A DNA stretch of 53,361 nt, from IMG/VR virus record IMGVR_UViG_3300027887_000002. One strand, 5' to 3'. Positions 744 through 52,749 of the stretch are shown in pieces (position 1 is the stretch's first letter; each line of letters starts with the position of its first letter). Source of the stretch: a virus. The translations under genes were made by a program, and so were the position numbers. The notes below the pieces were generated by a model. That model was not told where the DNA came from. It did not search any database and saw only the letters and a program-made list of their open reading frames with translations.

Positions 744-1662
744 ACGTACCGAAATAGATTTCGAAGACGACGCCGACAAAGTAATAGATCGTGTTTTTGC
801 CGATGAGGGCGCCCGTCAGGACACACTTTCTCTCGAGGAGAAGAGAATTGTCATTAAGGAGCTCGCGCTCCAGGCTTCCCAAAAGGAAGTCGTAGGTAAA
901 CTCAATGAATACCGTGGGGCGCGGCTCCTCCCCTTGATCCAAGAGAAGTTCGACATTACGCACTACAAACAGCGATACCCGACACTCATTGACGATGTCG
1001 CATTGCTGTACGCTAAGAATCTCGCAAGGAAGTTCCGCTTCGCAGACCGTCTTTTTAGGGTAGCGAAGCTCTCGGCTCTCTGTGAACACCTCAATACTCG
1101 TATTGAAGCGAGGAAAGAGGCGGCAGAGGACCTCAAGCTGGATCGACACGAAGAGAGAGCCCACAATGACACTATCAAACTCCTCTCCCAGCTTACGGAC
1201 GAGATAGACACTCAGATGGGCAAGATCCGCCTTACCCAGATTGACATTAACGTCAATGACGGCGAGAAAAAGCCCATGATAACCAACGCCAACGACGTTA
1301 AAGAAATGGTGGCGCAGTTTCTAAAGCGTAGCGTCGGTAGTCTGAACTCTATCGTAGATGCGAATTTCTCGGAAGTCACCGATTATGAAAAGTGTGGCTG
1401 GGGAGAAGAGTGGACCTCCACTCATTATTGCCGTTATCATGGTGAAGAATGTAAAGTAAAGACTGGGGCTATTCAACTTTGCCCCTATTTTCTTAATAAG
1501 GGGTGCGTAACCTCGAAAGAATGGCTCCAGAAGGGTTACGTCGACTCGAAACTCTCAGTAAAGGAACTAGCGGAATTAGCTGGTTGCAAAGAGGTATCAC
1601 AAAAGGTCGTAGAGTATGTCAGAGGTAAACTCCACGAGCACGGAGTTGAACGAGCTTCCTGA
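706..1662 (+). CDS. putative small terminase / DNA-recognition subunit
   Basis: Lies directly upstream of terL and overlaps it. Helical charged centre, Cys/His-rich C-terminal segment (CGW..HYCRYHGEEC..C..C) and an HTH-like LSVKELAELAGCKEVSQKVVEYV. Function is inferred from position only. Confidence 0.4.
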   Translation: MTSLPEKSLRAVERTEIDFEDDADKVIDRVFADEGARQDTLSLEEKRIVIKELALQASQKEVVGKLNEYRGARLLPLIQEKFDITHYKQRYPTLIDDVALLYAKNLARKFRFADRLFRVAKLSALCEHLNTRIEARKEAAEDLKLDRHEERAHNDTIKLLSQLTDEIDTQMGKIRLTQIDINVNDGEKKPMITNANDVKEMVAQFLKRSVGSLNSIVDANFSEVTDYEKCGWGEEWTSTHYCRYHGEECKVKTGAIQLCPYFLNKGCVTSKEWLQKGYVDSKLSVKELAELAGCKEVSQKVVEYVRGKLHEHGVERAS

Positions 1663-3265
1663 AGAGGTCTTTCTTCAGTCTTTCGTTCTCTTTTTGCTGG
1701 CTAAATGGAAGATATCCTCTGGGGAGGGGAAGGGTGAGGCGTATCGTTTTGATGAGCGTCCATTCCTCTACACGATAGCGACCGACGACTTTTGGAAGAA
1801 GGTCGTCATTAAGTCCGCCCAGTGCGGCATAACCGAGCTTGAGATAGCTGAGGCCATTTTCTTGGCCCTTTCCCGCAAGGGAAATGTGTTATACGCATTC
1901 CCGGCCCTTCAGCAGTTGAGACAGATGGTAGGGGCAAGAGTAAGGCCCGCTATAGAGGATAATCCTTATCTCTACGCTAAGGTCTCGGGGATGCTTAACC
2001 TCGAAGCCATTCAGATGTCCGGAAATACCCTGTATTTCACCGGGGTTCAGAATCGCCGCCAGATGATCTCCAAAGACGTCTCGGCGCTGTTCATTGACGA
2101 GCTAGACACGGCAGTCCTGGAGGCAAGTGAAAACCACTTTGGAAACGTCGTTTACACGCTGGAAAAGCGCCTTGGGGCCGCGAGTAAACCCATCATTCGC
2201 TATTACTCTACTCCAAGCTATGCAGGGATGGGAATATCAGCAGAATTTGCTGGTGATGACTCGAATCTGGGCTCGGATCAACGAGAGTGGATTGTCAAAT
2301 GCTCGTATTGCTATAAGGAACAGGAAATAACGTGGGAAGAGAACGTAATAGACAGGAATTTTCAACTAGCGGGAGATTCCCGTTACGTGCCCGACGTCCA
2401 TCGGGTATGTACGAAGTGCCGTCGAGACCTTACGGTGGAGGCGATTGTCGGTGGCCGCTACGTGGCCAAGAAGCCGAGTATTTCGCATCTCTGTCATGGA
2501 TACCACGTATCCAAGCTCTTCACGGCAAAGCCGCCGCTAAACCAGATGTGGCTCGATTCCCAAAACCCACTAAGAGAGCAGGAGTTTCGGTGCTCGGATC
2601 TAGGTTCGCCCTTTGAGCCCAAGGGAAGCAAGTTAACGGACGAAATACTCGATATGGCCGTGGCAAATTCTAACCACGCCATGTTGACCCAGTCTTCAGA
2701 TCAAACATACATGGGAGTCGACCTTGGCAAGAACCACAACGTCATTATAGGTCAAGAGACTCCAGAAAAGAAGATAAAGCTTCTTTATGCCGGGGAAGCT
2801 GAAGATCTGAACGCTGTAGACGCTTTGATGAAGAGATTCAATGTGGGGTTCGGTATTATGGACGCCCAGCCTGAGCACTTGAAGGCCAAAGACTTCTGTA
2901 GTGCTCACCCGGGCAGGATGATGGCGGCCTATTACCCCACGTATCTTGAGAACACGAAAGACATAGCCAAAGACAAAGACGACATGATTATCCATGTCAA
3001 TCGTAGTCTGGTTATGAGTATGGTGATTCAAGCATTTTTCAATGGCAAGATCCTTCTCCCTAAAGATATCCGCTCGGTGAAGGATTTTTACAAACAGATG
3101 AAGTCTCCGGTCAAGGCCACCCAGGAAGATACCAATGGGAACCTCCGGACGTTCTTCCCGCCCACTAAGATGGCGGATCACTATTTTCACGCATTTGTTT
3201 ATTTGATGATAGCCCTGGAAAAGCGTCCCCGGAGCGTCATCTTCATCCCGAAAGGTATCTGGTGA
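1616..3265 (+). CDS. terL: terminase large subunit, GpA (lambda)-like
   Basis: Walker A-like VVIKSAQCGITE, Walker B ALFIDELD, internal zinc ribbon CSYCYKE...CTKCRRD, and a C-terminal nuclease-like region with acidic motifs (GVDLG, IMDAQPE). 549 aa. Confidence 0.85.
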   Translation: MSEVNSTSTELNELPEEVFLQSFVLFLLAKWKISSGEGKGEAYRFDERPFLYTIATDDFWKKVVIKSAQCGITELEIAEAIFLALSRKGNVLYAFPALQQLRQMVGARVRPAIEDNPYLYAKVSGMLNLEAIQMSGNTLYFTGVQNRRQMISKDVSALFIDELDTAVLEASENHFGNVVYTLEKRLGAASKPIIRYYSTPSYAGMGISAEFAGDDSNLGSDQREWIVKCSYCYKEQEITWEENVIDRNFQLAGDSRYVPDVHRVCTKCRRDLTVEAIVGGRYVAKKPSISHLCHGYHVSKLFTAKPPLNQMWLDSQNPLREQEFRCSDLGSPFEPKGSKLTDEILDMAVANSNHAMLTQSSDQTYMGVDLGKNHNVIIGQETPEKKIKLLYAGEAEDLNAVDALMKRFNVGFGIMDAQPEHLKAKDFCSAHPGRMMAAYYPTYLENTKDIAKDKDDMIIHVNRSLVMSMVIQAFFNGKILLPKDIRSVKDFYKQMKSPVKATQEDTNGNLRTFFPPTKMADHYFHAFVYLMIALEKRPRSVIFIPKGIW

Positions 3266-4857
3266 TGGACTACAAGACCATCCTCGTCGACATTCAGAGC
3301 TATTACTCCACCCGGAAAATGAACATCCTGAAGCTCTGGGATTTCTATATGGGGGACAACCAGAGATTCTATATTGGGAAGTTCAAAGGCGAGGACCCTA
3401 ACGACTTCACTGAGAGGGTCGGGAACGCCAGCGTAGAAAATCATTGTGCCAAGACCTGTGACACCATCGTCGGATATCTCTACGGGAATCCGGAGAGCTC
3501 TGGTAGAGTCAAGGTGACCATCCGGAACAGGAAAGACAAGAAGATCAACGAGGAGGCTATGGAGTTTCTCTCTGAAAACGTCTGGCGACACAATGCCATT
3601 GACGCATTCAGGGTAAACGTGGGTCTGATGAGTTCTATTACCGGGATAGGGGTGGTCTTTAAGGTCTTTGTTGACTCCAGGACCTCACTTCCTTTTGGCG
3701 TCTTTGCTACGGCTGAGGAAAAGAAGGAATTCGGTACGATCAGGTACGATCTATGGGAATCTGCTGACACGATCGCTGTTCCACTGGTAGATTCTCAGGG
3801 AAATGCGCATTCCGGAGTCCTAGGGGCTATCGTGCGGATCACCCAGCCGGATGCCAAGAGACTTATGGAGTCTCCGGTAGGACGGGTGGTAAACCTGATG
3901 AACACGAAGTATCGGGCAGATTATTTCGATTCCGAACAGTATGTCATAGCTGACGTCGACAGAAGTTCTATTCAGCAAGAGACCATCAAGTCTATTCCGA
4001 ATCCTTACAAGAGTCTCCATATCCCGTTTACCCTCTTCAGGAACTACGGGAATCCCATGGGTCTTGAGGGATATTCGGATATCGACCAGATGGTGAGCCT
4101 CCAGACGGATCTGAACGAGCTCTCTACTGACGATAAGACCTGCATAGACTACCACTCATTCCCACTTCTCAAACTTACAAAAGGGGCCAAACTTCCACCC
4201 AACTTTGTGCGAAAAGCAAATTCGGCATTGGAGATGGACGGGGACCAGGATGCGGACTATTTGACTTGGGACAATGTCTTGGAGGCTTCCCAGAAGAAAC
4301 AGGACTCAATCCGCAAGCAGATGACTGTAGTGTCGGGTGTCTCTCAGCTCTCGCGCGGAAACGCTGATAGTGTTGGACAGGTCAAGGGAGCTACAGCCCT
4401 CAAGACACTCTTCCAGGCTGACATCCTCGAAATCGGGCTAAAAATCCCATTCTTCCGTACCGCAGAGGAAAGACTTGCCGAGTCGACACTCAAGATGTGG
4501 GAAATGGAGACCGGAACCACTTTCGGAGATGTCTACGCGGAATGTGAATTCCCGGCAGATTTCATCGGAATCGACAAACTGTTGGCCGCTCAGACGGATC
4601 AGATCGAAGTAACGTCCGGAATCGCCTCTATTCGCGAAAAGATTGCGGCGAGACATCCCGATATCACTTCAGAAGCAGAACTCGACGCTCTCGTACAGTT
4701 GGTATATGACGAGGCCGCAGAGATGGCCGAGGCTAAGGCCGGACCACAACTTGCGGTTGCCAAGATGCAACAGGATACCATGATAAAGACCACCGAAATG
4801 AACGCTAGTGCAAAACCGCAGAACCCGGCTCAAAAGAGCGCAGAACAAAACAAGTGA
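3262..4857 (+). CDS. portal protein
   Basis: 531 aa. ATG overlaps the terL stop (ATGA). The N-terminal LWDFYMGDNQ pattern resembles SPP1 gp6-type portals. Position is between terminase and scaffold. Confidence 0.7.
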   Translation: MMDYKTILVDIQSYYSTRKMNILKLWDFYMGDNQRFYIGKFKGEDPNDFTERVGNASVENHCAKTCDTIVGYLYGNPESSGRVKVTIRNRKDKKINEEAMEFLSENVWRHNAIDAFRVNVGLMSSITGIGVVFKVFVDSRTSLPFGVFATAEEKKEFGTIRYDLWESADTIAVPLVDSQGNAHSGVLGAIVRITQPDAKRLMESPVGRVVNLMNTKYRADYFDSEQYVIADVDRSSIQQETIKSIPNPYKSLHIPFTLFRNYGNPMGLEGYSDIDQMVSLQTDLNELSTDDKTCIDYHSFPLLKLTKGAKLPPNFVRKANSALEMDGDQDADYLTWDNVLEASQKKQDSIRKQMTVVSGVSQLSRGNADSVGQVKGATALKTLFQADILEIGLKIPFFRTAEERLAESTLKMWEMETGTTFGDVYAECEFPADFIGIDKLLAAQTDQIEVTSGIASIREKIAARHPDITSEAELDALVQLVYDEAAEMAEAKAGPQLAVAKMQQDTMIKTTEMNASAKPQNPAQKSAEQNK

Positions 4858-4889
4858 CACGATTTGCGCACGACTAGCCGATATATTAC
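4855..4889 (+). promoter_or_regulatory. late promoter-like tripartite motif, copy A (TGACAC-N7-GCACGAC-N7-TATATTAC)
   Basis: TGACAC 4855-4860 contains the portal stop codon. GCACGAC is at 4868-4874 and TATATT at 4882-4887. Spacing is the same as in copies at 11392 and 52459. It sits 23 nt upstream of the csp ATG. Confidence 0.55.
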
Positions 4890-4911: not shown

Positions 4912-5184
4912 ATGAGTCAGGAAGTCGCAGGGACATGCAAATGGTTTGACGAGGCTAAGGGCTACGGATTCCTTACCTCGGATTCGGTTATTGATGAAAA
5001 CGGTGTAAGAAAAGACATCTTCATACACTATAAACACATCGTCGCACCCGGCTACCGGAAGCTTGTGCGCGGTGAACTGGTAACATTTAAGCCCGTGAAG
5101 ACCGATAAGGGAGTCATGGCGACGGAAGTAAAAACTGGTGATAAACCACAAGAAGGGGTAATTAGTCATGCCGAAATTCGGTGA
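4912..5184 (+). CDS. cold-shock domain protein (CspA family)
   Basis: GTCKWFDEAKGYGFL (RNP1-like KGYGF) and DIFIHY (RNP2-like). Core size about 70 aa plus a short C-terminal tail. Confidence 0.9.
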   Translation: MSQEVAGTCKWFDEAKGYGFLTSDSVIDENGVRKDIFIHYKHIVAPGYRKLVRGELVTFKPVKTDKGVMATEVKTGDKPQEGVISHAEIR

Positions 5185-5829: not shown

Positions 5830-6786
5830 ATGGCCTTCCCGTTTGATGGAGGTTATGGCGACGCTTTTGCGGTAAACAAATCGCAAATGGCGGGTCAGAA
5901 CCAAGTTCTGACACAGTGGAGCGGAGAAGTTCTTCGCCTCACGCAGGATTCACTTGTATTCCCCCGGTTCTTTGACCTTGCGCCTCCTGGCATCACGATG
6001 GGACTAGGCAAGGGAGACACCTGGCGCGCACCTATTTTCCTCTGGAATGAGACTACGGCGGCTACCACGGCGCTGACAAGCGGCACCACTATTCCCCTCA
6101 TTACACAGGCAACATTGAACATCTCGGGTACCATCGACGAGTATGGTCGTGGTATCGCCGCAGAGAATGTTCTTGAATACTATGTGAAGTTCGGTGTGCA
6201 GGGCGAACTTCTCCAGACTTTGGCCAACAACAGGGCCCTTGTTCTGAATGAACTCTGCCGTGGAATCATCCACAACACCAAGCACGTTGCAATCCTTGGG
6301 ACCAATGGTACGATTTATCGGCAACTTGGAGCGGCTTCCGCCACCCTTGCCAATGGTACCATCACGACCACGCAAGTCAACCAGCTCTACGACTCGCTGA
6401 AGGCGGCTAGGGTTCCTCGGTGGGGCAACGGGCTCTACGTCTGGATCGGGAATGCGGCACAACTGCGTCCCCTGAAGGACTCTGGTGTGTTCCAGAACTA
6501 TTCGCTGTACAATGCTCCGATGGCGGGTTATGTGTATCAGACCATCGGCAACTTCGGCGGGTTCACGTTCATCGAAACCGAGGAAGGCATGAATGCGACG
6601 ACCTCGTACATTCTTGCCCCCAACGTAGCGGCTCAGGCTTATGCCAAACCCATCAGCCTGTACTACTACCCCGATTTCAACTCGGATGCCGGACGGTTGA
6701 ACGTGTTCAAGTGGCACATGCTGGCTGGGTTCGCCCCCATCTTGCGTGATTATGGAACTCGTGCGATTCGTCTCATCACGACCTAA
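5830..6786 (+). CDS. major capsid protein (putative)
   Basis: 318 aa ORF immediately after the scaffold gene and followed by a GC hairpin. Assigned from order and size only. Confidence 0.65.
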   Translation: MAFPFDGGYGDAFAVNKSQMAGQNQVLTQWSGEVLRLTQDSLVFPRFFDLAPPGITMGLGKGDTWRAPIFLWNETTAATTALTSGTTIPLITQATLNISGTIDEYGRGIAAENVLEYYVKFGVQGELLQTLANNRALVLNELCRGIIHNTKHVAILGTNGTIYRQLGAASATLANGTITTTQVNQLYDSLKAARVPRWGNGLYVWIGNAAQLRPLKDSGVFQNYSLYNAPMAGYVYQTIGNFGGFTFIETEEGMNATTSYILAPNVAAQAYAKPISLYYYPDFNSDAGRLNVFKWHMLAGFAPILRDYGTRAIRLITT

Positions 6787-10034: not shown

Positions 10035-10657
10035 TGGATAAAAAGGGTATTTATGCGATGTTCCCGGATGATTACTGGGAACATTTTTATAAAGAGTTTG
10101 GACATGATTTCGTGGACGCGCATTATGCGAGAACGGCGGTCTACGAGAGTAAGTTTTTCTCTGATCTGCAGGGAAAGAGAGTGATTGAGGCTGGTGGCTA
10201 CCCGGGACTTCTTATAGCGGCGTATATACTAAGTGGGATCGACGTAGTATGCGCCTTCGATCATCCAGACTACAGACCCGCGTATTATCTGTCTTGGATG
10301 AAGGAAATGGGGATACCATCCATAGAACACAACTTCAACTCTGGATATCCCGAAGGACCGATCCCGGAGGCTGACGTCATGGTAATGAGTGACGTCCTTC
10401 TTCATAATGGTGGATTTCCAACGAAGTTCATAGAGTGGGCTCTTAGTCACGTAAAAGAGATCTATCTCATCAACTACGAGGGGAGTGGCCCAGTATTAGA
10501 ATCTCGTGAATTTGATCTAAAAAAGGGCTTTAGGGTCCCAAACTCTACGGCAATCATAGCGCACATGCACACCCTAGGGGCTTCTTGTTCGCGCAGGGAC
10601 TCGTCAGCCGATAGATCTTTGCTCGTATTCAAACCAGGAGAACCATGCGTACCTTAA
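10034..10657 (+). CDS. putative methyltransferase-like Rossmann protein
   Basis: GKRVIEAGGYPGLL glycine loop and DVMVMSDVLLH. The GTG start overlaps the upstream TAG. Assignment is weak. Confidence 0.4.
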   Translation: MDKKGIYAMFPDDYWEHFYKEFGHDFVDAHYARTAVYESKFFSDLQGKRVIEAGGYPGLLIAAYILSGIDVVCAFDHPDYRPAYYLSWMKEMGIPSIEHNFNSGYPEGPIPEADVMVMSDVLLHNGGFPTKFIEWALSHVKEIYLINYEGSGPVLESREFDLKKGFRVPNSTAIIAHMHTLGASCSRRDSSADRSLLVFKPGEPCVP

Positions 10658-11394
10658 TTATTGTCCCACATTACGGCTCAATCGACCATTTGCGAAAACT
10701 TTTCCCATCACTTGGTCTAACCGACAAAGATGTTGACGCTTGCACGGAGAGGGTGTCCATCTTCACCACCTTCTATGGAGCGGTTCTCGTTGTGAACAAC
10801 AACTTGGAGAACTGGGGATTCACCAAAGCCTGTAATATTGGGATGCGGTACGGATTGACGTCTGATTACGACATTCTCTGGCTTCTCAATAATGATACGG
10901 ATGTCCCGGATATACATAAGGCTCTCACTGAACTCGAAAAGGAGTTCGTAGACAACCCTAAAACTGGCGTGGTTGGGTTCAAGATATGTTCCATGGAAGA
11001 CCCGGATTTCATCCATCACGGGGGAACGGGTCAATGTATTCCCACTGGGGTTCACAAGGTTGGATACGTGTCTCAGAAACAGTACGATAAACGTACATTC
11101 GAGCACTGGGTTACGGGGGCTTCTATGGCTATTTCTGCGGGATGTCTTCTGGCTACCGGGGAGATGGACGAGAAGATGGAGAACTACTATTCGGACTCAG
11201 ACTTCTGCTACCGGGCCAGATACTGTGACTACAATGTCGTTTACCTTCCTATCCCAATTCTGCATAAAATAGGTCAATCTGCCAAACCATCCGAAGAGCA
11301 GACCCGGGTGATGCAGAAGGACTTCCTCGTTTTCCAGGCTAAATGGTTGTCTTCTAGGGCCTTTATGGAGTTGTCGGCGGAAGCGTTTGCCTGA
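10645..11394 (+). CDS. glycosyltransferase family 2 (GT-A)
   Basis: LIIVPHYGS start, VVNNN..GFTKACNIG and LLNNDTDV motifs typical of GT2 enzymes. Confidence 0.7.
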   Translation: MRTLIIVPHYGSIDHLRKLFPSLGLTDKDVDACTERVSIFTTFYGAVLVVNNNLENWGFTKACNIGMRYGLTSDYDILWLLNNDTDVPDIHKALTELEKEFVDNPKTGVVGFKICSMEDPDFIHHGGTGQCIPTGVHKVGYVSQKQYDKRTFEHWVTGASMAISAGCLLATGEMDEKMENYYSDSDFCYRARYCDYNVVYLPIPILHKIGQSAKPSEEQTRVMQKDFLVFQAKWLSSRAFMELSAEAFA

Positions 11395-11426
11395 CATCCT
11401 TTAGGCACGACTGCCGGGTATATTAC
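11392..11426 (+). promoter_or_regulatory. late promoter-like tripartite motif, copy B (TGACAT-N7-GCACGAC-N7-TATATTAC)
   Basis: TGACAT 11392-11397 contains the GT2 stop codon. GCACGAC is at 11405-11411 and TATATT at 11419-11424. The next ATG (11435) is 9 nt downstream. Confidence 0.55.
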
Positions 11427-11434
11427 GCCCTGCG

Positions 11435-12226
11435 ATGACAACCTACATCTCCGAAACCGACCTGAACTCTGTCCTCGAAGGGTTTGTCCCTGCTTATTAT
11501 GGGACAGTCTTTTATGGGGACGGGACTGTCACGATTGGCACTCAGTATCCAGCCGATCATGCGCTTTCGTTCCAAAAAGTGAACGAAATGCTTTACGGTA
11601 TAGGACATCTCAAGGCGGTTCCAGTCGGGACCCAGAGGGATGGAAACTACCCTTATGCCGTACGGATGATGCAAGCCAACTTCATGGTGTACCAGAGGCT
11701 TCTTTCCAAACATTATGGAGAGGTCTCCGGGGGAGAAGTTCCTCCCTGGATAAACGTCTACCGTACCCGAGCTATGGAGACGTTGTCTGATATCAAGGGG
11801 CAGGACATCATCTTCCTCGACGATGTGAGTCAGGGCGAACAGGGGATCGGCGTCGGCTCTTGGACTCGGAAGAACGGTACGGTGAACCTGTTCACCAACT
11901 GGGAAAGTGGTACCTATCAGGGTGTCGACTGGGCCCGGGTGTACGTCGTAGAGATTGACGCTACGACCACCGGAACCGCGATCGGCAAAGCAAACTTCAA
12001 GTGGAGTCGCGATGGCGGTGTCTCTTGGGTTGGCACACTCGGAACGACCGGAACAAACTGGAATTACCTTGAGAACGGTCTCTGTGTTCGCTGGGAGCCC
12101 GTCCTTTCGGGGACGTTGGTTTCTGATGTGTGTGGGTTGGGCGACCGATTCGAAGTGACTTGTGTGCCACAGAATATCCCAGTAAAGAGTGGGAATATCA
12201 GATTTGTTACCTGGCGGCGTGGATAA
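11435..12226 (+). CDS. virion structural protein (head-tail adaptor-like N-terminus plus beta-rich C-terminal domain)
   Basis: First gene after late motif B. The N-terminal YISETDLNSVLEGF resembles connector/adaptor proteins. Assignment is positional. Confidence 0.4.
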   Translation: MTTYISETDLNSVLEGFVPAYYGTVFYGDGTVTIGTQYPADHALSFQKVNEMLYGIGHLKAVPVGTQRDGNYPYAVRMMQANFMVYQRLLSKHYGEVSGGEVPPWINVYRTRAMETLSDIKGQDIIFLDDVSQGEQGIGVGSWTRKNGTVNLFTNWESGTYQGVDWARVYVVEIDATTTGTAIGKANFKWSRDGGVSWVGTLGTTGTNWNYLENGLCVRWEPVLSGTLVSDVCGLGDRFEVTCVPQNIPVKSGNIRFVTWRRG

Positions 12227-12706: not shown

Positions 12707-13801
12707 ATGAGCAAGGGTTGGGAAAGCTCCATCAGGGTGCAGGAAAACTATCTGGGCTTTGGCTCCACGATTGGAAGCTTGGTCAGGATGGGCAACTTCC
12801 TGTACGTCGATAGTGAATCTATTGCAAGGAATCCGACGATTCGGGAACGCGATAACAAACTCGTGCCTACCCGACTGGTCCCAGCCGAAACAATGGGTCT
12901 GGATCAGTACGCACCGGGAGGCCAAGTCACTTGGCAACCCCGATCTGACGATTCGCTCTCAATGCTTATGGCCTTCTTCCAGACGGCCACACATATGTTT
13001 GGCGGGACTACCCCCGCTTTGAACGCCACTGGGACTTGGCAGTTTGCCTTTGTCCCCAAAAGCCTTCTCTGGACCGGGAAACAGTATTACGGAACAGGAA
13101 ACGGTTACGGCACCGGAACCTCGGTATACTGCGTAAATGCGGATCTTTGCTTCGGTCAGGGTATGACGACCACGCCTAACGGTATCCGTTTTGAGCGTGG
13201 TATTGTCACGAAACTTACGATCCAGCAAGATCCCGCCGCAGACCTTCAGTTTGTTGCGGATATGAAGTTCCTCCAACACGAAGATCAGGCGACGTATACG
13301 TCAGCCTTCAGCTTCCTGCCTGGGGCGGCTGGCTCGCTCTCTTCGAAAAAGCAGTTCGTTGATTGGAATGGTACCTTGACGGTTGGGGGAAACTCGTATA
13401 ATATCGAGAAGCTTTCCCTTGAGGCCGACAATCAGAACGTCGATCGCAGGAAACTGGGTCAGAAGGGCTTTGCGAACTTCCCGTTTGGGCGAGCTATCGT
13501 CAACGGTCAGTTCGATCTTGAGCTCGAAGATCTCACATTGTTCACTCCTGCCGCCTCTGGTGGCACGTTACAGTGTACATGGAGAACTTCTGACGGTGAT
13601 TGGCTCCAGGTGTTCTGCCCGAATATCTATTACAAGAATCCGGACCCGAAGGTTAATGATGCTGGACCGATCATCCTGACGGTGCCTTTTAGGGCGTATC
13701 CAAGTGCTCAGGGACGTAACGACGCTGTTCTCGTCAACGTCTGTCCACTTGGCTCGTACGCTTTGGCTGGGACTGCGGTTCCCCAGCTTATCTGGAATTA
13801 A
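12707..13801 (+). CDS. major tail (tube) protein (putative)
   Basis: 364 aa ORF directly upstream of the chaperone / frameshift / tape-measure set. Confidence 0.5.
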   Translation: MSKGWESSIRVQENYLGFGSTIGSLVRMGNFLYVDSESIARNPTIRERDNKLVPTRLVPAETMGLDQYAPGGQVTWQPRSDDSLSMLMAFFQTATHMFGGTTPALNATGTWQFAFVPKSLLWTGKQYYGTGNGYGTGTSVYCVNADLCFGQGMTTTPNGIRFERGIVTKLTIQQDPAADLQFVADMKFLQHEDQATYTSAFSFLPGAAGSLSSKKQFVDWNGTLTVGGNSYNIEKLSLEADNQNVDRRKLGQKGFANFPFGRAIVNGQFDLELEDLTLFTPAASGGTLQCTWRTSDGDWLQVFCPNIYYKNPDPKVNDAGPIILTVPFRAYPSAQGRNDAVLVNVCPLGSYALAGTAVPQLIWN

Positions 13802-14723: not shown

Positions 14724-15333
14724 GAAGAGTCTTCTCAGGATCATCGACGAGATGGCTGTCCCTAGTCCCAAGCTCATGCGGACTATCGGGGAAGAGATGG
14801 TTCTCGGCTACCAAGGTGGACGCAGACTCCTTCTAGGAGATGTGAGCTTTGGACCCAAGGGTGGGATGACTTTCTCTGGAAGAAATGGTAGATATTCGCG
14901 CGGTATCATGCGGCGCGTATCTCCAGATGGCAAACCTTACCCAATCTTGGCAAACGGTAAATATCATGCCCAGTCCACCTTAGATCTGAAGGAACGCAAC
15001 AGCTCCCGATTCGCCGCAGATCAATATGTACTTCGTGATACAGATGACATGATGCAGAAGTTCACCTATCAGATAAGTGCGACCAAGAGAAACTGTTCCG
15101 CAAGAGCTGGGTTCTTCGGGCATCCAGATTTGAATGCGAAAAGTATTCGCCTTGAGAATGGCGGAAACTTTAGGAGTAAAGATCTATCGAATAAGAAAAA
15201 GGGCGGGAATACGGTGATGAGGACAATCCACCTCACCCCTAGACCCCACAGAGCGATGCAACCTGAAACCGAAATGGTTATTCGTGGTCTACTGAGGCGT
15301 TGGGCCCAAAGATTCGCAGGTAAAAGTTTATGA
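14665..15333 (+). CDS. tail-associated protein of unknown function
   Basis: ORF with its stop overlapping the tape-measure ATG (ATGA). Start is uncertain (GTG 14665 or ATG 14752). There is a faint resemblance to virion-morphogenesis/tail-completion proteins. Confidence 0.45.
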   Translation: MSVKIICRGQTVLQDILGGKKSLLRIIDEMAVPSPKLMRTIGEEMVLGYQGGRRLLLGDVSFGPKGGMTFSGRNGRYSRGIMRRVSPDGKPYPILANGKYHAQSTLDLKERNSSRFAADQYVLRDTDDMMQKFTYQISATKRNCSARAGFFGHPDLNAKSIRLENGGNFRSKDLSNKKKGGNTVMRTIHLTPRPHRAMQPETEMVIRGLLRRWAQRFAGKSL

Positions 15334-18300
15334 TTAACTCTACTACTGGCGCCACGATGCAGGTCAACGTCGAGATCACGACGGTTGGCGCCGAACATGC
15401 ACATGCCCTTCTTAAGAAACACATGGCGGATCTTGAGGCTCTCAGACAAACGGAAATGCGTCTGCAGAGTGGTCATCCATTGGCTGTGTGGAGAGCTAAC
15501 CAGGACGTTGCCGGACAGATACAGGCGGCGGCGGCATCTAAGGCCGCTTTTGAATCGTTTGAAAAACAGAGACGCTCTGTTTTGGGAATAACTGCCGCTC
15601 AAAAGGATGCGGCAGAACAAGCTAAACTACTTGCGGCGGTAGATCCTCTTAACCAATGGGATAAAAGTTTTCGCAAAATGGTAACCGTGTTCCAGCGTGT
15701 GCGGGACGCTCTTTTATCTTTTATGGTTATCAATATGGTTAGCCAGGGGATTCAAGAGTTTTTTACAAAGCTAGTGCAGGCCAACGCCCAGATTGAAATG
15801 CTTGATACCAGACTGGCTAGAATGAATATCTCGGCAGAGGGTATAAAAACCCTAAAAGATTCTATAGTTCAGTTGACTTTACAGACCCCGTTTGTCATTA
15901 AAGATTTTACTGATGCGGCTGTTCAGTTAGAAGCTTTTGGCATCTCCGCCGAAAAGAATTTAAAGCCCATATCAGACTGGGCATCGGCTATGGGTAGAGA
16001 TCTTGCCGATATGACTACGGCATTTTCTAAAATTGCCATAGGCAGTCCTAGAACTACACTTTTATTGACGACCAGGGGCATTCGAAAAGAGGAGTTTGAT
16101 GCAGAACTTAAGGTTACACATGATCGTGTCTTAGCTCTGTCTAATGTGATAGAGAAAAAGTTCAGTGAAATGGCAAAGGCCACTTCTAATACATTTCTTG
16201 GAATGATTGCCAACATCCAAGATGCCTGGTTTCTTTTGGCAAAACAGATTGGTGGCCCACTATTCGAAAAAATGAGAAGTGATGTAGGCCGTCTATTTAT
16301 TGGTCTCAAAGATGCTTTGGGTGGAGATGTTGCCGGGAAAGGTTCCTTGCCAATAAAAATTCTAGGAGAGACTATTGGATATCTGTACTCCGTTATCAAG
16401 ATGTCTCTTCCTATGATTACGGCATTCCTTGGAGCTTGGGCCATAAGGGGTACCGCAGTTGGGATAATGTGGCTTGTTGGGCAATTTCAGGGGATGATTA
16501 GGAACGTCTCTACACTTGGAGCCGCTTTTACGGAAGCTGGACAGGCCATTCGAGGATTTGGCCTCATGTCTCAAAGTGCGCGCATCTCTTTGCAGAGCCT
16601 TTATTTAGCTCTTGCTCCCGTTATAGCTATTGCTTCTGTAGCATTTATGGGTATATATTCATTCTTGGGTGATATGGAGCGGGCCGGAGTAGATTCTGCG
16701 GCGGCTATCGCGGCGCTCAACGATGAAATGATTACTACGGATGGAAAAATACAGGCCCTTAAGGTCTCTATTGCTTCCATGGAGAATGCTACTGGCGGAT
16801 TCTTCTCTAAGTTGTGGGCCGGGATTCTGGACATCGCAAGTGCCCGTGGCAGGGCCATGCATGGTGGGTTGCCCGGTCAACTTGAGATGATGGATATACT
16901 TGAGAAAGAACTTGCCAGAGAGAAAGATATTCTTTCTGTTCTTCAGGCTCAAGAGGAAGAGCGTAAGCGTATGCTTAGGCTCACCAGAGAGTCTCTTTCT
17001 ACCGTAGACGCTCTTGCCATTTCTGAGATGGTAAAGAAAAAGCAGGGCGGGGAAGAAGTTCTTGAGGCGGCAAAGAAACAGGTTGCCGCACAGCTCCTGG
17101 ATGCCGACAAAGCTTATACGAATGCCACAAAGCTTGCCAATGAGTCGGATGCTAAATTCAAGCAGAGAAAAGAGGGACTGCTTGATGTCCTGCAGACACT
17201 CCGACATCTCCAAAAAGTTTTTACAGAAGTTTCCCTTGGTCCAGAAGTGCTTAAAGGCAAGGTTGTAACTGAGACATTGTCTAATATGGACACCATTATT
17301 AAGTCGATTTCTCTTGGTAGGGATCAGGCTTTAGGTGCGTGGAAGGAGATCCTTGGGGATCTTCCGGACGAAGAAAAGAACAAGACGAAAGGCAAGGTGG
17401 AGAAAGACATATCGGCGTGGTTTACCAAGATAGCCGAGATGGAGGCTCGTTTTGCGTCACTTTCCGAGGGTGAACCCAGGTATGCGGAGCGCATAAAGGG
17501 CAATCTGGCGAAGATGATGATAGAGCGCGTGAGAGCTTTAAGCACTATAGGTGGCGCCGTGGGGATTAAGGCTTACATGAACTTCATCACGGCCGCAGTA
17601 TCTACGTACGAAGAATTGAATAAATGGCTTGAAGCAATTGCCAGAAATGACGAAAAGCTTCAGAATGCCCAACGACATCGTTATGATGCGGAGCGTGAAG
17701 CTCAGGAAGCCCTTCTTTCTGCGGAAAAGGCCAGAATAGACTATGAATATGAGCGGTCTGGTAGACTAGAGGATGTTAGAGCTGAAAAGCAAATGCAATT
17801 ATTCAAAGTGACAGTTCTTATGAAGCAAGCCGAGATGGAGCTTGCTAAGGCAAAGGACAAAGTAGTGAATGGGGCTATAGCTGAAGCCGAAAAAATGGCT
17901 GCTGTAGCCGAAGTTCAGAAAAGTTTGAATGGACTTACAAAAGATTACTGGGATATTCTCAAAGAGATATACGCTCTACCTTCGACAGACTTTGTTATGG
18001 CTTGGGAAAAAGCCATGAAAAGGTTGCAGGATGACATTAACGCGTTTTATGACACACTTTCAGATTCTCTTGTCTCGGGCCTAAGAGACTTTGCGGTTGG
18101 GGTTATCAAGGATTTTGTCCACCTGTTTTCAGCCACGGATGAACGTACAGCAGACTTGCTCGCCGCCCAAGAGGAACTGTCTCAACTTCAGAATGACAGC
18201 AAACGGAACTATGTTCAGGTTGAAAAACTGCGCCGGAGTGCGACAGAGACGAATGAAGAGTATCTGAGCCGGATGAAGATGCAGGAACAACTCACCAATG

Positions 18301-18641
18301 CCAACGTGATGCAGTATGAGGCGCAGACTAAAGAAGCTGAATTGATGACCAAGATCAACCAGCTTGAGGCCGAGCGCAACAATCTCCTATTGGATAGGCT
18401 CCGTATCCTTGGCGAAAAGATTTTCGATACCGTATTAACGGGTGCCGTAAACGTCTTAATGCATTCTATTGGAATTGGTGGTGGTGGTGAATCTAATGGT
18501 CCATCTCTGCCTGTGCCAGAGCCAGTCCCAGAAAATCCGTTGACGTCTATCAATTTCTATGGTGATGTCTACGGTATGGAAGACTTCTCGCAGAAAGTTG
18601 ATTTGGCTGTTAGGGAGAATTCCCGCAGGAGGAGTGGATAA
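15330..18641 (+). CDS. tape measure protein
   Basis: 1103 aa with long helical/coiled-coil stretches. Central hydrophobic segments: ITAFLGAWAIRGTAVGIMWLVGQF and LALAPVIAIASVAFMGIYSFL. Position is after the chaperones. Confidence 0.85.
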   Translation: MINSTTGATMQVNVEITTVGAEHAHALLKKHMADLEALRQTEMRLQSGHPLAVWRANQDVAGQIQAAAASKAAFESFEKQRRSVLGITAAQKDAAEQAKLLAAVDPLNQWDKSFRKMVTVFQRVRDALLSFMVINMVSQGIQEFFTKLVQANAQIEMLDTRLARMNISAEGIKTLKDSIVQLTLQTPFVIKDFTDAAVQLEAFGISAEKNLKPISDWASAMGRDLADMTTAFSKIAIGSPRTTLLLTTRGIRKEEFDAELKVTHDRVLALSNVIEKKFSEMAKATSNTFLGMIANIQDAWFLLAKQIGGPLFEKMRSDVGRLFIGLKDALGGDVAGKGSLPIKILGETIGYLYSVIKMSLPMITAFLGAWAIRGTAVGIMWLVGQFQGMIRNVSTLGAAFTEAGQAIRGFGLMSQSARISLQSLYLALAPVIAIASVAFMGIYSFLGDMERAGVDSAAAIAALNDEMITTDGKIQALKVSIASMENATGGFFSKLWAGILDIASARGRAMHGGLPGQLEMMDILEKELAREKDILSVLQAQEEERKRMLRLTRESLSTVDALAISEMVKKKQGGEEVLEAAKKQVAAQLLDADKAYTNATKLANESDAKFKQRKEGLLDVLQTLRHLQKVFTEVSLGPEVLKGKVVTETLSNMDTIIKSISLGRDQALGAWKEILGDLPDEEKNKTKGKVEKDISAWFTKIAEMEARFASLSEGEPRYAERIKGNLAKMMIERVRALSTIGGAVGIKAYMNFITAAVSTYEELNKWLEAIARNDEKLQNAQRHRYDAEREAQEALLSAEKARIDYEYERSGRLEDVRAEKQMQLFKVTVLMKQAEMELAKAKDKVVNGAIAEAEKMAAVAEVQKSLNGLTKDYWDILKEIYALPSTDFVMAWEKAMKRLQDDINAFYDTLSDSLVSGLRDFAVGVIKDFVHLFSATDERTADLLAAQEELSQLQNDSKRNYVQVEKLRRSATETNEEYLSRMKMQEQLTNANVMQYEAQTKEAELMTKINQLEAERNNLLLDRLRILGEKIFDTVLTGAVNVLMHSIGIGGGGESNGPSLPVPEPVPENPLTSINFYGDVYGMEDFSQKVDLAVRENSRRRSG
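18413..18426. repeat. CGAAAA-GA-TTTTCG palindrome-arm copy
   Basis: cgaaaagattttcg inside the tape-measure gene. Arms are perfect with a 2-nt spacer. Confidence 0.8.
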
Positions 18642-47212: not shown

Positions 47213-47278
47213 GGGGCAGAGTAGGGATTGAACCTACATTGACCGATTTTCTCGGGGTCTTACTTAGACGATCTGCCC
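47213..47278 (-). ncRNA. tRNA-like element with truncated anticodon arm
   Basis: Minus strand: acceptor GGGCAGA/TCTGCCC (7 bp), D-arm GTCT-AAGTA-AGAC, T-arm GTAGG-TTCAATC-CCTAC. The anticodon arm is only CCGA-GAAAA-TCGG (13 nt instead of 17). It starts 6 nt after the stop of gene 47285-47521. Confidence 0.5.
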
Positions 47279-47766: not shown

Positions 47767-47795
47767 TTGACATTGATATGAGATAAATGTATAAT
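47767..47795 (+). promoter_or_regulatory. consensus sigma70 promoter (TTGACA-17 nt-TATAAT)
   Basis: TTGACA 47767-47772, 17-nt spacer, TATAAT 47790-47795. Both hexamers match the consensus perfectly. Confidence 0.7.
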
Positions 47796-47922: not shown

Positions 47923-47951
47923 TTGACAGAACGAAAATTTTTCGCTATTGT
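47923..47951 (+). promoter_or_regulatory. sigma70-type promoter (TTGACA-17 nt-TATTGT) with the palindrome in its spacer
   Basis: TTGACA 47923-47928 (a second TTGACA is at 47914-47919). The 17-nt spacer contains CGAAAATTTTTCG (47932-47944). TATTGT is at 47946-47951. Confidence 0.55.
47932..47944. repeat. CGAAAA-T-TTTTCG palindrome copy (operator-like position)
   Basis: cgaaaatttttcg inside the promoter spacer, 60 nt upstream of ATG 48004. Confidence 0.85.
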
Positions 47952-48003: not shown

Positions 48004-49089
48004 ATGGAAAAACGAACCGCAATCGAAAAGACGGAAATTGATTTTTCCGCATATATGAAAACCGAACCGATGGACGAAGCAAGAAGGTTATTAAAAAGAA
48101 AGGGGATGGAATCAAAGCAGAAAGCCTGCGACATCATAGGGGAAGCTTTGACAGGGAACCCGATGAGCTATCGAACATATATGAGGCACAAGAAAACCGG
48201 AAAAGCTGTGCAATCAATCACAAGGGTTATTTTTGTCAAGAAGGCAAACAAAGCAGATTTTTCAAAGCTTGTTTCAACCTATTTCTTTGAAGAGAAAGTG
48301 ATGCCAAAAGTCACAAAGCTAAACGAGATTGACAGCGTATGTGAGGAAAAGCTAGGCGAAACAAAAAAAGCATATGTAGAAATAAACGAAGAAGTCAAAA
48401 AGCTTTTCGCGAAAGAAATGAGCGAAGCAATCAAAAAAGACAAAGGGGAAACAATCACAAAGAAAAGCAAGTTAAGCAGAAAAGCTTTTCGCAATGAACA
48501 AGGTGAATATATAACCCCTTTATATGAAGTAGTAACAAAGCCACAAAGCATAACAAGCAAGGAATCAATCATAGAAAAATATGATGCAATGGAGAAGGAT
48601 AGAAAGAGAGAAGCAAAAAAGGAAAATAAGGCGATTGAGCATATCAAGGTAGAAGTCAAGCGGAATGTGGACATTGAACGCATAACAAAAACAGTAACAA
48701 ACTATATATATTCCCTATATTATCAAATGCGTGATGACATAGGAAGCAGATTTTCAACAAAAAGCTTTTCGCATATGGCTAGGTTCTCTCCTCAAGATAT
48801 TATTTCAGCAACATTAGAACAAGCATGGCTCGAATATATGGAGAAAGGGGAATTGCCTAGCATTCAATGGCTAATGTTAACAGCAAAGAATATGTTTATG
48901 AGGGAATATACAGTCAATAGAAAATTCTCCCCCTTAGAAATTCAAGCATTTGATGTTGACAGTTTAGAACAAGGCGATATGTGGAGCGAAGAAAGGGAAG
49001 TAGAAAGTAGTGAGCTTATATCAGATTACGGTATCAATGAAAGGGCTATTATATTTAGTGCATTGCAATGTATGCCGTGGAATAGATAA
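48004..49089 (+). CDS. Lys/Glu-rich 361-aa protein; possible DNA-binding / sigma-like regulator
   Basis: AT-rich gene with its own promoters and terminator. The C-terminal DIISATLEQAWLEY....IQWLMLTAKNMFMREY loosely resembles sigma-70/ECF region 2. The gene contains three half or near copies of the palindrome (48397, 48478, 48759). Confidence 0.5.
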   Translation: MEKRTAIEKTEIDFSAYMKTEPMDEARRLLKRKGMESKQKACDIIGEALTGNPMSYRTYMRHKKTGKAVQSITRVIFVKKANKADFSKLVSTYFFEEKVMPKVTKLNEIDSVCEEKLGETKKAYVEINEEVKKLFAKEMSEAIKKDKGETITKKSKLSRKAFRNEQGEYITPLYEVVTKPQSITSKESIIEKYDAMEKDRKREAKKENKAIEHIKVEVKRNVDIERITKTVTNYIYSLYYQMRDDIGSRFSTKSFSHMARFSPQDIISATLEQAWLEYMEKGELPSIQWLMLTAKNMFMREYTVNRKFSPLEIQAFDVDSLEQGDMWSEEREVESSELISDYGINERAIIFSALQCMPWNR

Positions 49090-49101
49090 ATAACTTTTCA
49101 A

Positions 49102-49130
49102 CCCCTTGTCGATACGGCAAGGGGTTTTTT
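49102..49130 (+). terminator. rho-independent terminator
   Basis: CCCCTTG (49102-49108), 9-nt loop, CAAGGGG (49118-49124), then TTTTTT (49125-49130). It lies 12 nt after the stop of gene 48004-49089. Confidence 0.8.
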
Positions 49131-49484: not shown

Positions 49485-49561
49485 GGATTTCGTGTCTAAG
49501 ATGGGAGTAAGAGAAGAATTTGTGGCATTTGTCGCATATGTAGCCCGAGAGCTTTCTCATG

Positions 49562-49633
49562 TAGCGGGGGTGGGATTCGAACCCACGACCTCCTGGTTAT
49601 GAGCCAGACGAGATACCACTTCTCCACCCCGCA
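49562..49633 (-). tRNA. tRNA-Met (anticodon CAT), initiator-type
   Basis: Full cloverleaf. Acceptor GCGGGG/CCCCGC with an unpaired U1xU72. D-arm GAGA-AGTGGTA-TCTC (A11:U24). Anticodon arm TCTGG-CTCATAA-CCAGG. Variable loop AGGTC. T-arm GTGGG-TTCGAAT-CCCAC. Discriminator A. No encoded CCA. Close to the E. coli tRNA-fMet sequence as I recall it. Confidence 0.85.
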
Positions 49634-49689: not shown

Positions 49690-49830
49690 TCATTTGGGTG
49701 TCTTTTTCTTTTTGAGGATCTTGAGCTTTACAAGGGCTTTTCTGAGGCAGTCACCACACATGGGGGTCTGGTTCATACCAAACCATATCAACGCCTCCTC
49801 TTTGCATTTATAGCACTTCACCTTCTTCAT
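49690..49830 (-). CDS. 46-aa zinc-ribbon protein (below the ORF-track cutoff)
   Basis: Hand translation: MKKVKCYKCKEEALIWFGMNQTPMCGDCLRKALVKLKILKKKKTPK. ATG overlaps the upstream TGA (ATGA). Confidence 0.45.
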   Translation of the reverse strand: MKKVKCYKCKEEALIWFGMNQTPMCGDCLRKALVKLKILKKKKTPK

Positions 49831-50033
49831 TTCGTCTCCTCAGTAGCGACCATAATGGTATAGTCCGGCTGTTTTGTTCCCTCTTCCTTCTTCTCGTTCG
49901 CAAACATCAGAAAAGAGAACTTCCCGTCTTTCTCGCTCGCGAAAGTCTCTAGTTTCACTACGTCCATGGAAAGACTCACGAACTGCCCCTTTTTTCCTTC
50001 CCTTATCCAACCTGCCCCTACCTGCTTTAACAT
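49827..50033 (-). CDS. small protein, unknown function
   Basis: ATG 50033 is preceded by AAAGGAGA. The ORF-track start at 50054 is a GTG. Translation: MLKQVGAGWIREGKKGQFVSLSMD...KQPDYTIMV. Confidence 0.5.
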   Translation of the reverse strand: MLKQVGAGWIREGKKGQFVSLSMDVVKLETFASEKDGKFSFLMFANEKKEEGTKQPDYTIMVATEETK

Positions 50034-50941
50034 ACCGTCTCCTTTTTTTGACACACTCTATGCAACTGTAGTCCGGGTGAGCTCCCGACAACCCCAGGTG
50101 GTCGCCCCGGTTACGCCACCTGTGCTTCCAAAACTCCGTCTCGTACTTGTATCTCCTGCAGGTCGAGCATTGGTACAGCATGAGACCCTGAGAATCCCTC
50201 TTTACCTTCCTGTATTTCTTGCGCGCGACTCGCCTTCCGAGCGAACCATTCCTGTCGCTGACGCAATCGAGACAACTTGCGCTGTACCTCCCGTCCTTCC
50301 GCAGTTTGAAATTTTCTATAGGGATGTATATTCCACAGCTCGCACACAGCTTTGAGACTATCAACCCCCGTCGCATTTTTAATATCGTCGAAGACCTTGG
50401 AATCCGGGGGATATACCTTCCGAGCGTATCGTACAGACCGCCACTTAAAGCCTCTAAGGTTGAAACATGGCCTGCAGACCCTGAGAATGGCCCGCTTTCC
50501 ACTCTTGAGGTGGGATTGGACGCACTCCCTGACGGGAATATCTTTGTGACAGTCTGTGCATTCAAGTGCCTTGACTCCTCCTACTCGCTTTATCATCATT
50601 TCTATGGTCTGACGGGGCTTCTTACCAGAGGCTCGACGCTTCTGCTCCATTCTCTCAGCCTGAAATTCACAGTGACAGTGCTTGCAAAGCCTGGAAAAGC
50701 CTAAAATGAGCGTCTTTCCGTCTTTTTTGAACTCCCCAACTTCCCTCAGCCGCTCAAAACTGGTAGTGTCTCGGTATTTTGGGTGAAAAAGGGCGATTTC
50801 TTTCCATGTCTGACACTTTGTACAGAATCGGAAGGTCACAATCCCGTTCCGGATACGTATATTGTCGTTCCTGCCCTTATCCGAAGACAACCAGGCGTAC
50901 CTACCATCACTACAGGGAAAGATCTCACCCTTTGCACTCAT
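50030..50941 (-). pseudogene. four-repeat CxxC...CxxC zinc-ribbon protein split across two reading frames
   Basis: Frame A (50941 -> about 50350) carries CTKC..CKHC and CTDC..CRPC units. Frame B (about 50400 -> 50030) carries CASC..CLDC and CSTC..CIEC units of the same C-x2-C-x(8-12)-F...C-x2-C type. The junction needs a +1 shift. Confidence 0.5.
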
Positions 50942-52067: not shown

Positions 52068-52129
52068 GTAGCTCCTGGTAGTTGTAAGTTACAACTTCGC
52101 CCTTAATATACGAAATTTAAAGGCAAAAG

Positions 52130-52303
52130 TCAAGCTCTTTCTTTGTTTTTATTGAAAAGTTCAGGATGTCTGTATCCAGACGCGATCTCCTTCCAAACAT
52201 CCCTCTCGGTCCTCGCCTTCTTGAGGTAAACCAACAAATCTTCTCTTGAAGCGTTTTCAATGTCTGGATTCAACGGTCTGTAGTCTTCGGGGAATGTGTT
52301 CAT
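52130..52303 (-). CDS. 57-aa hypothetical protein, first leftward gene (below the ORF-track cutoff)
   Basis: Hand translation: MNTFPEDYRPLNPDIENASREDLLVYLKKARTERDVWKEIASGYRHPELFNKNKERA. Confidence 0.35.
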   Translation of the reverse strand: MNTFPEDYRPLNPDIENASREDLLVYLKKARTERDVWKEIASGYRHPELFNKNKERA

Positions 52304-52458: not shown

Positions 52459-52493
52459 TGACACCCCTTGGGCACGACCGTCCGGTATAATAC
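52459..52493 (+). promoter_or_regulatory. late promoter-like tripartite motif, copy C (TGACAC-N7-GCACGAC-N7-TATAATAC)
   Basis: TGACAC 52459-52464, GCACGAC 52472-52478, TATAAT 52486-52491. It lies 31 nt upstream of ATG 52525 in the divergent intergenic region. Confidence 0.55.
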
Positions 52494-52524: not shown

Positions 52525-52749
52525 ATGAAAATTCTCGAGTTTTTGCAGGAATCCAACGGCCAGCTCTCTTCGTCAAGACTTTTTGCGTTGATCGTGACCT
52601 TGTGTTTCTGCGCCGACTGGGTTGTTCACATCATCAATCAGCAGATGTACGATCCGACTCTGACCATCGTTGGAATCGTTATTGGTATTAACGGCCTGAA
52701 AGTGGCCCAGAAACCCTTCGAGGAAAAACCCTTAGAGGCGGCGAAGTGA
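52525..52749 (+). CDS. holin-like two-TM protein
   Basis: Internal ATG 52525. Translation: MKILEFLQESNGQLSSSRLFALIVTLCFCADWVVHII...LTIVGIVIGINGL, with a charged C-terminus. First gene of the lysis cassette. Confidence 0.5.
   Translation: MKILEFLQESNGQLSSSRLFALIVTLCFCADWVVHIINQQMYDPTLTIVGIVIGINGLKVAQKPFEEKPLEAAK

Follow-up and report, generated by a model that had tools for sequence, protein, structure and literature searches.

Late gene blocks and the motif at their heads

The DNA analysed here, which we call the window, is the 53,361-nucleotide stretch presented as IMG/VR virus record IMGVR_UViG_3300027887_000002, a 53.4-kb phage genome in which the late genes run along the + strand, starting at 52525, passing over the window ends and reaching about 33816, whereas DnaB, Erf and an amidoligase cassette are encoded on the - strand between 33817 and 46190. 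Our subject is a three-part motif, TGACAY-N7-GCACGAC-N7-TATAWTAC, whose three copies we predict to be late promoters. Copy 3 (52459-52493; TGACAC 52459-52464, GCACGAC 52472-52478, TATAAT 52486-52491) heads the lysis, terminase and portal block, which comprises a small gene starting at 52525, an M15/VanY endolysin (243-743), the large terminase (1616-3265) and the portal (3262-4857). Copy 1 (4855-4889; TGACAC 4855-4860, GCACGAC 4868-4874, TATATT 4882-4887) lies between portal and csp and is followed by the cold-shock protein Csp (4912-5184), the capsid (5830-6786) and GT9 and GT1 glycosyltransferases. Copy 2 (11392-11426; TGACAT 11392-11397, GCACGAC 11405-11411, TATATT 11419-11424) stands at the end of the glycosyltransferase cassette and heads the tail block, with the tail tube (12707-13801) and the tape measure (15330-18641). 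The copies and all of the genes listed are on the + strand, and the annotation of the blocks agrees with an earlier note on this DNA, which had placed the motif at the head of three late gene blocks.

The full pattern has three exact matches in the window, all on the + strand, and no further match on either strand when up to 3 mismatches are allowed; 100 dinucleotide-preserving shuffles gave 0 matches (chance expectation 0). The shorter pattern GCACGAC-N7-TATAWT, with up to 2 mismatches, has just 2 additional matches, which is the chance level. The three identically spaced copies that had been reported were recovered at every position given for them, and the scan of the window found no copy away from the three late-block heads. 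GCACGAC ends 7 nt and TGACA ends 22 nt upstream of the hexamer. The TGA of copy 1 is the stop codon of the portal open reading frame (ORF; 3262-4857) and that of copy 2 is the stop codon of the ORF at 10645-11394, as had been pointed out for two of the copies. Downstream, the first ATG after copy 3 (52525) lies 33 nt past the hexamer, the csp ATG (4912) is preceded by the Shine-Dalgarno (SD) sequence AAAAGGA, and the next ATG after copy 2 (11435) is 10 nt past the hexamer.

The hexamers (TATATT, TATATT and TATAAT) are near the sigma70 -10 consensus TATAAT. A scan for sigma70-type sites with spacers of 16-18 nt called none of the three copies, and the -35 position is occupied by ACGATT, ATCCTT and ACCCCT, with no TTGACA-like hexamer 16-18 bp upstream and no TG extended -10 in any of the three. 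The claim that the geometry departs from that of sigma70 promoters therefore holds, with the TGACA spacing set at 22 nt. Neither dyad symmetry nor a hairpin plus T run is present at the motifs, and the three window copies have no common RNA fold (z = +1.1, -2.4 and +1.4); a MerR-type promoter was rejected for want of a dyad, and a hairpin or terminator reading was rejected from the sequence and the RNA-fold result. Between 52303 and 52525 there is no other sigma70-type site on the + strand, and copy 3 is the only conserved candidate start of + strand transcription in this divergent intergenic region. The lysis-head copy thus sits where the + strand unit must begin, with no other promoter-like site, which fits a promoter.

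Scanning about 45 ORFs turned up neither a phage RNA polymerase nor a sigma factor, nor any other protein recognisable as a transcription factor. The largest ORFs encode the tape measure, tail proteins, the amidoligase and DnaB, and there is no polymerase among them; host polymerase must therefore transcribe the late genes, and T7-type promoters were rejected. Pfam and PHROG scans of the same ORFs, which comprise all but some of the small ones, gave no match to MotA or AsiA homologues. No close DNA relative was found among GenBank phages, no exact match to the motif in IMG/VR or JGI metagenome contigs, and no portal relative in IMG/VR or among GenBank phages; a search with the capsid gave only a remote Bacteroides phage match.

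A motif is kept at three junctions in related lineages

The portal has 28 metagenomic relatives at 36-71% identity. We compared the DNA around the portal for 9 of the 28, and the gene order is the same as in the window. The contigs of the relatives derive from SRR25083377, ERR14794636, SRR33452760, SRR32006845, SRR22452315 and SRR13958302. Eight lineages, the window and those labelled L001, L002, L003, L006, L008, L009 and L010, form the comparison set, the seven relatives' portals being 47-52% identical to the window's. Three junctions are equivalent among them: the head of the lysis cassette, the boundary between portal and csp, and the end of the glycosyltransferase cassette. At all three, each of the eight lineages (8/8) carries its own motif, with a TAnnnT hexamer at the end and a box 6-8 bp upstream of it, so that a motif of this kind recurs at these operon heads in 7/7 of these relatives. 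The motifs are AACG-N8-TAGCGR-N7-TATATT in L001, yTGGT-N8-TATAWT in L002, ACTATACGTCCTCA-N6-TATTTA/AATTAT in L003, TGTAGGCGCA-N6-TAKATT in L006, GTGAGCAA-N7-TAMRTT in L008, CTAGCGCA-N6-TATACT in L009 and AGCGCA-N6-TAKATT in L010. When both strands were scanned with regular expressions, the late strand of every lineage had three copies of that lineage's own motif and no more, one per junction; the sole exception to the three-copy rule is one extra inverted copy in L003, and another 12 kb of the L002 genome contains no additional copy. No TTGACA-like element stands at any fixed distance from the hexamer in the relatives, and there is no -35 there either.

Hexamer-to-start distances were compared at two of the junctions. 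Between portal and csp the gap is 18-34 nt with an SD sequence in 7 of the 8 lineages, and about 100 nt in L009. At the lysis head it is 7-50 nt; the shortest, 7 nt in L006, is compatible with a leaderless start.

The closest relative, L005 (portal identity 71% by BLASTP and 70% in the alignment matrix), is a 3.3-kb contig that covers only the junction between portal and csp, where it reads TGACGA...GCGAAAC-N7-TATATT. Its box region (2545-2565) is a perfect GC hairpin, GGGGGCG-CGAAA-CGCCCCC, directly before TATATT, and the two together look like a combined terminator and promoter. In L003, the box ACTATACGTCCTCA at 1527-1540 and its inverted copy at 1809-1822 flank the first lysis gene as an inverted repeat, which may represent an antisense promoter, an invertible element or a structural one.

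The box changes in concert within each genome

When the 24 sites (3 copies in each of 8 lineages) are aligned on the hexamer, positions -12 to -9 before it are the same in all three copies in 8/8 lineages, yet are lineage-specific; positions -13 and -8 are invariant among the three copies in 6/8 lineages, and a second conserved patch lies at -26 to -22. Within the hexamer, the first T, the A and the last T are common to 7-8 lineages. The clade of L001, L006, L009 and L010 (portal identity 58-63%) has a common (T)AGCG core, the boxes of L002 and L003 (66% portal identity) are unrelated, and GCACGAC of the window is unlike the box of every other lineage. Three copies that are altered together while holding their position are the signature that a site read by a co-evolving trans-acting factor would leave.

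An internal control is provided by a canonical leftward early promoter near the late motif, TTGACT-17-TATATT (52105-52133, - strand in the window). The same promoter occurs in 6 of the 8 lineages (the window, L001, L003, L006, L008 and L010), 40-350 bp from the late motif. The early promoters keep the canonical TTGACT/TTGACA-17 form; the hosts thus work with standard promoters, from which the late motifs stand apart as a class of their own. The -35 is constant at the early promoters but not at the late motifs, which argues against a host sigma factor or activator as the reader of the box.

A probable late promoter read by a phage factor

We consider it likely that the three motifs are late promoters for the host RNA polymerase, each combining a normal -10 with a phage-specific box that a co-evolving phage factor reads. 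The TATAWT hexamer would act as an ordinary -10, and strength and timing would be set not by a -35 but by two phage-specific upstream elements: a box of 7-9 bp, placed 6-8 bp upstream of the hexamer at about -26 to -20 (GCACGAC in the window phage), and a distal element at about -39 to -34 (TGACAY in the window phage). Both would be read by an early, fast-evolving phage protein that replaces -35 recognition, either as an adaptor on the host sigma factor, in the manner of T4 middle promoters, or as a subunit that resembles sigma factors but has diverged far from them. The lysis-head promoter would start the transcription unit, and the other two would serve as internal boosters placed right after the preceding stop codon. 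From the sequences we infer that the motifs act as promoters, that transcription starts about 5-9 nt past the hexamer, that it comes late and that it depends on a phage factor. The proposal of a phage-specific late promoter class, already made in the earlier note, gains strong support from the retention of the motif in eight lineages, the concerted change of the box and the constancy of the nearby early promoters.

The protein named there as a possible sigma-like factor is encoded at 48004-49089 on the + strand (361 amino acids, no family assignment; here p361). Its gene forms a self-contained early island made up of a consensus promoter, the gene and a terminator: a perfect sigma70-type promoter, TTGACA-17-TATAAT (47767-47795), and a second one, TTGACA-17-TATTGT (47923-47951), precede it, and a strong intrinsic terminator with a 12-bp stem and a T run (49100-49126) follows directly, all on the + strand. 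Positional counterparts lie at 1497-2351 in L001, at 597-1532 in L006 and at 16495-18282 in L011, which belongs to the L002 contig; the last encodes 595 amino acids, lies 10.7 kb from the lysis head and has the same layout of promoter (TTGACA-17-TATATT) and terminator. The island is present in at least 4 lineages; the suggestion that p361 is the factor is no more than a lead, and the sigma-region-2 likeness is weak.

Members of the p361 family are barely alignable (18-27% identity, BLAST E about 1) and share an N-terminal helix-turn-helix (HTH)-like stretch and a C-terminal block, RFSxQD(I/V)..(D)L.L..W...A(K/R)N.F, which weakly resembles region 2 of extracytoplasmic function (ECF) sigma factors. 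An exhaustive profile search of 1.8 billion representatives returned 4 members (clusters) only, a word-based search found no relative but p361 itself, and the family alignment is too divergent for back-translated scans. The member from the L002 lineage matched SigM models at E 0.0014-0.039, far below the cut-offs, and its C-terminus had no match in PDB (phmmer); the family profile gave weak matches to SigL sigma2 (E 0.16) and to sigma 5uxx (E 1.1). Designer PPR proteins, the top matches of the shared-block profile, were rejected as repeat artefacts (4 bits per repeat). Five candidate-family proteins, the only ones so compared, had no RinA/ArpU match in NCBIfam.

We tentatively take p361 as the best candidate for the late-promoter factor. 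A bolder reading, that the family is a new and extremely divergent sigma-like subunit which reads the hexamer and the box 6-8 bp upstream, strikes us as rather unlikely; so does the domain order it would imply, with the RNA polymerase-binding sigma2-like block C-terminal and the DNA-reading HTH N-terminal, the reverse of the normal sigma order. We know of no sigma factor that uses a box-to-hexamer spacing of 6-8 bp. Alternatively, p361 could be a palindrome binder rather than the late factor: the palindrome CGAAAA-N1-2-TTTTCG (11 copies) is found with the early promoters and those of p361 but is absent from the late motifs.

The family ranges from 284 to 595 amino acids, and the faint HTH-like match of the 595-residue member lies C-terminal to the shared block, whereas it is N-terminal in the shorter members; the match is not significant, and the shift may reflect a domain rearrangement.

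Several observations weigh against late promoters read by a phage factor of this kind. There are just three copies per genome, and the position-specific requirements are poorly defined as a result. The p361 family has no significant family match (none in Pfam), hhalign of the family against E. coli RpoE gave a probability of 0.2%, the AlphaFold model of p361, built from 3 sequences, is unusable (pLDDT 43), and the family was not detected in the 6.9 kb upstream of the L008 lysis head. At the third junction, the next ORF starts between -2 and +10 nt from the hexamer. In L001 the start codon, a TTG, runs into the hexamer and the SD sequence lies inside the motif spacer, and the ATG is 3 nt past the hexamer in L009 and 2 nt past it in L010. 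An ORF that starts so close is not expressible from copy 2 there, and read-through transcripts must cross the motif. Copy 2 is thus best described as a putative internal promoter for genes further downstream, and not as a strict unit boundary.

Right after the third motif, the relatives have a conserved membrane protein of about 60 amino acids (M, 13/14 residues, R[IV]HK[ST]Y.F...FY, then a transmembrane helix) in a region that gene callers left empty. It lies at 18694-18850 in L001 and starts at 20139 in L002, 16637 in L003, 18230 in L006, 19705 in L008, 17971 in L009 and 16737 in L010. The window lacks it and has a 263-residue ORF (11435-12226) in that place.

Alternative readings of the motif

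No terminator precedes two of the copies, which are embedded in an uninterrupted run of same-strand genes, and in some lineages the mRNA of the ORF at the third junction must include part of the motif. These points would suit an element that acts after initiation, such as a loading site for a Q-like antiterminator, an RNA processing site, or a stabilising 5' end produced by cleavage of a late transcript, and a member of a zinc-ribbon family of the early operon has a faint match to Antitermination protein Q (E = 0.12). We nevertheless regard such an element as improbable: the copies have no RNA fold in common, the Q match is not significant, and the conserved TAnnnT and the position of the lysis-head copy at the start of the unit fit a promoter. 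Q systems, moreover, need a functional sigma70 promoter with a -35, as at lambda PR', and a functional -35 is absent at the motifs.

Constitutive promoters read by the host housekeeping sigma factor alone, with TGACA as a displaced -35 and the box either incidental or a spacer effect, would be in keeping with the near-consensus -10 and with the likeness of TGACA to TTGACA. Set against this are the 22-nt spacer, which is outside 16-18 nt, the failure of the scanner to call the sites and the lack of a TG extended -10; the relatives have no TTGACA-like element at a fixed distance, the box is invariant in 3/3 copies of every genome, and these same genomes have canonical TTGACT/TTGACA-17 early promoters. 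We judge this explanation very unlikely.

We give equally little credence to a host alternative sigma factor or host activator, under which the differences between boxes would reflect different hosts. In two of the copies, GGCACGA is reminiscent of the sigma54 -24 element, and a likeness to the sigma28 -10 is seen in GCCGATAT of copy 1. However, copy 1 has no GG (CGCACG), and no copy has TGC four bases after GGCACG, that is, the -12 GC at the required spacing; for sigma28, there is no TAAA 15 nt upstream. A sigma54 promoter, with GG at -24 and GC at -12 ten bases apart, was rejected on this count and because the relatives' boxes are unrelated. The specificities of host sigma factors are conserved across phyla, and the boxes are wholly different in the close relatives L002 and L003 (66% portal identity), whereas the early promoters of all these phages are alike.

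Finally, a DNA site outside transcription (a module-boundary recombination sequence, or a packaging or replication signal) would place the copies exactly at module junctions, as they are, but is most improbable, since boundary sequences should be common between phages whereas the motifs are shared within a genome and differ between genomes, and since every copy is oriented with the downstream genes and ends in a -10-like hexamer at a promoter-like distance from a start codon.

Comparison with known phage promoter systems

At T4 middle promoters, an excellent sigma70 -10 is combined with a MotA box that replaces the -35 and is centred at -30, 12 +/- 1 bp from the -10 (PMC2988021), and the AsiA/MotA mechanism is known as sigma appropriation (PMC2988021, PMC6755090). 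The window motifs are similar in having an excellent -10 and a phage-specific box in place of the -35, with the host polymerase and an early factor as the proposed actors. They differ in that the box is 6-8 bp from the hexamer in all 8 lineages and is lineage-specific, that a second element lies at about -39 to -34, that no MotA or AsiA was found, and that there are 3 copies per genome against about 60 in T4.

Promoters of phage sigma-family proteins include the T4 gp55 late promoter (TATAAATA) and those of SPO1 gp28 and gp33/34. Like these classes, the motifs of the window phage form a small phage-specific set that heads middle or late genes, and p361 has a faint sigma-region-2-like block; unlike them, the -10 equals the host consensus, the upstream box is proposed to be required, and there is no significant sigma homology. 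In phiEco32, the gp36 promoters have AATGTA at -11.5 (PMC12276001); in that class the -10 itself is altered, unlike in the window motifs.

The RinA/ArpU/Ltr superfamily of temperate Gram-positive siphophages comprises activators of the late operon, which has one late promoter upstream of terS (PMC3152322). The window phage would share with these a dedicated promoter for packaging, lysis and virion genes and, as proposed, a phage-encoded activator, but it has three copies at separate places, all with the same box-to-hexamer geometry. Thermus phage P23-45 gp39 reportedly retargets the host holoenzyme to late promoters that lack a -35, favouring an extended -10 and using no DNA box. The late motifs of the window likewise lack a -35 and rely on the -10 region, but have a sequence-specific box and no TG extension. 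The kind of element is familiar; its distinguishing marks in this phage group are the geometry, the clear concerted evolution seen in eight lineages and the lack of a recognisable factor.

None of the phage promoter classes compared has a box-to-hexamer distance of 6-8 bp, and the reader protein may therefore contact RNA polymerase and DNA in a new way. For a phage group without a cultured or deposited relative, the analysis yields a predicted transcription map, in which three late promoters stand beside canonical early promoters and a single early regulatory island. A putative case of promoter and factor co-evolution comes with it: the copies change jointly in each genome, and the -10 and the early promoters of host type are kept. 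Were the factor identified, synthetic biology could draw on the eight lineages for short promoter/factor pairs that are orthogonal to one another; should the sigma-like reading of p361 be true, each lineage would be such a naturally orthogonal pair. Late operons in related metagenomic contigs can be annotated by looking for a box, N6-8 and TAnnnT at the three junctions.

Other features of the early region

The only tRNA called is tRNA-Met at 49561-49633 (- strand); a tRNA-like element at 47213-47278 was called neither by ARAGORN nor by Rfam at the gathering threshold.

Four families found in every lineage's early operon, weighed as other candidates for the factor, look DNA-metabolic: an RNase H-fold exonuclease, DUF968, CxxC zinc-ribbon proteins with endonuclease VII/HNH/Lar-like matches, and a 75-residue protein. 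The structural model of the zinc-ribbon protein (pLDDT 75) had no significant structural neighbour. On the - strand at 49840-50941, two frames that encode paralogous CxxC-rich zinc-ribbon proteins, A (50111-50941, 276 amino acids) and B (49840-50565, 241 amino acids), overlap by about 455 nt. Protein-level matches in other lineages reach E = 1e-28 for B, which has endonuclease VII/HNH/Lar-like PHROG matches, and 1e-11 for A, and the overlap may reflect either true dual coding or a programmed frameshift. The 75-residue protein (49827-50054, - strand), with the pattern GAGW..E.K.G...S.S.D...PDY conserved in all seven lineages, faint DUF736 Pfam labels in relatives and a weak SSB PHROG match, is probably a small early-operon protein that binds DNA.

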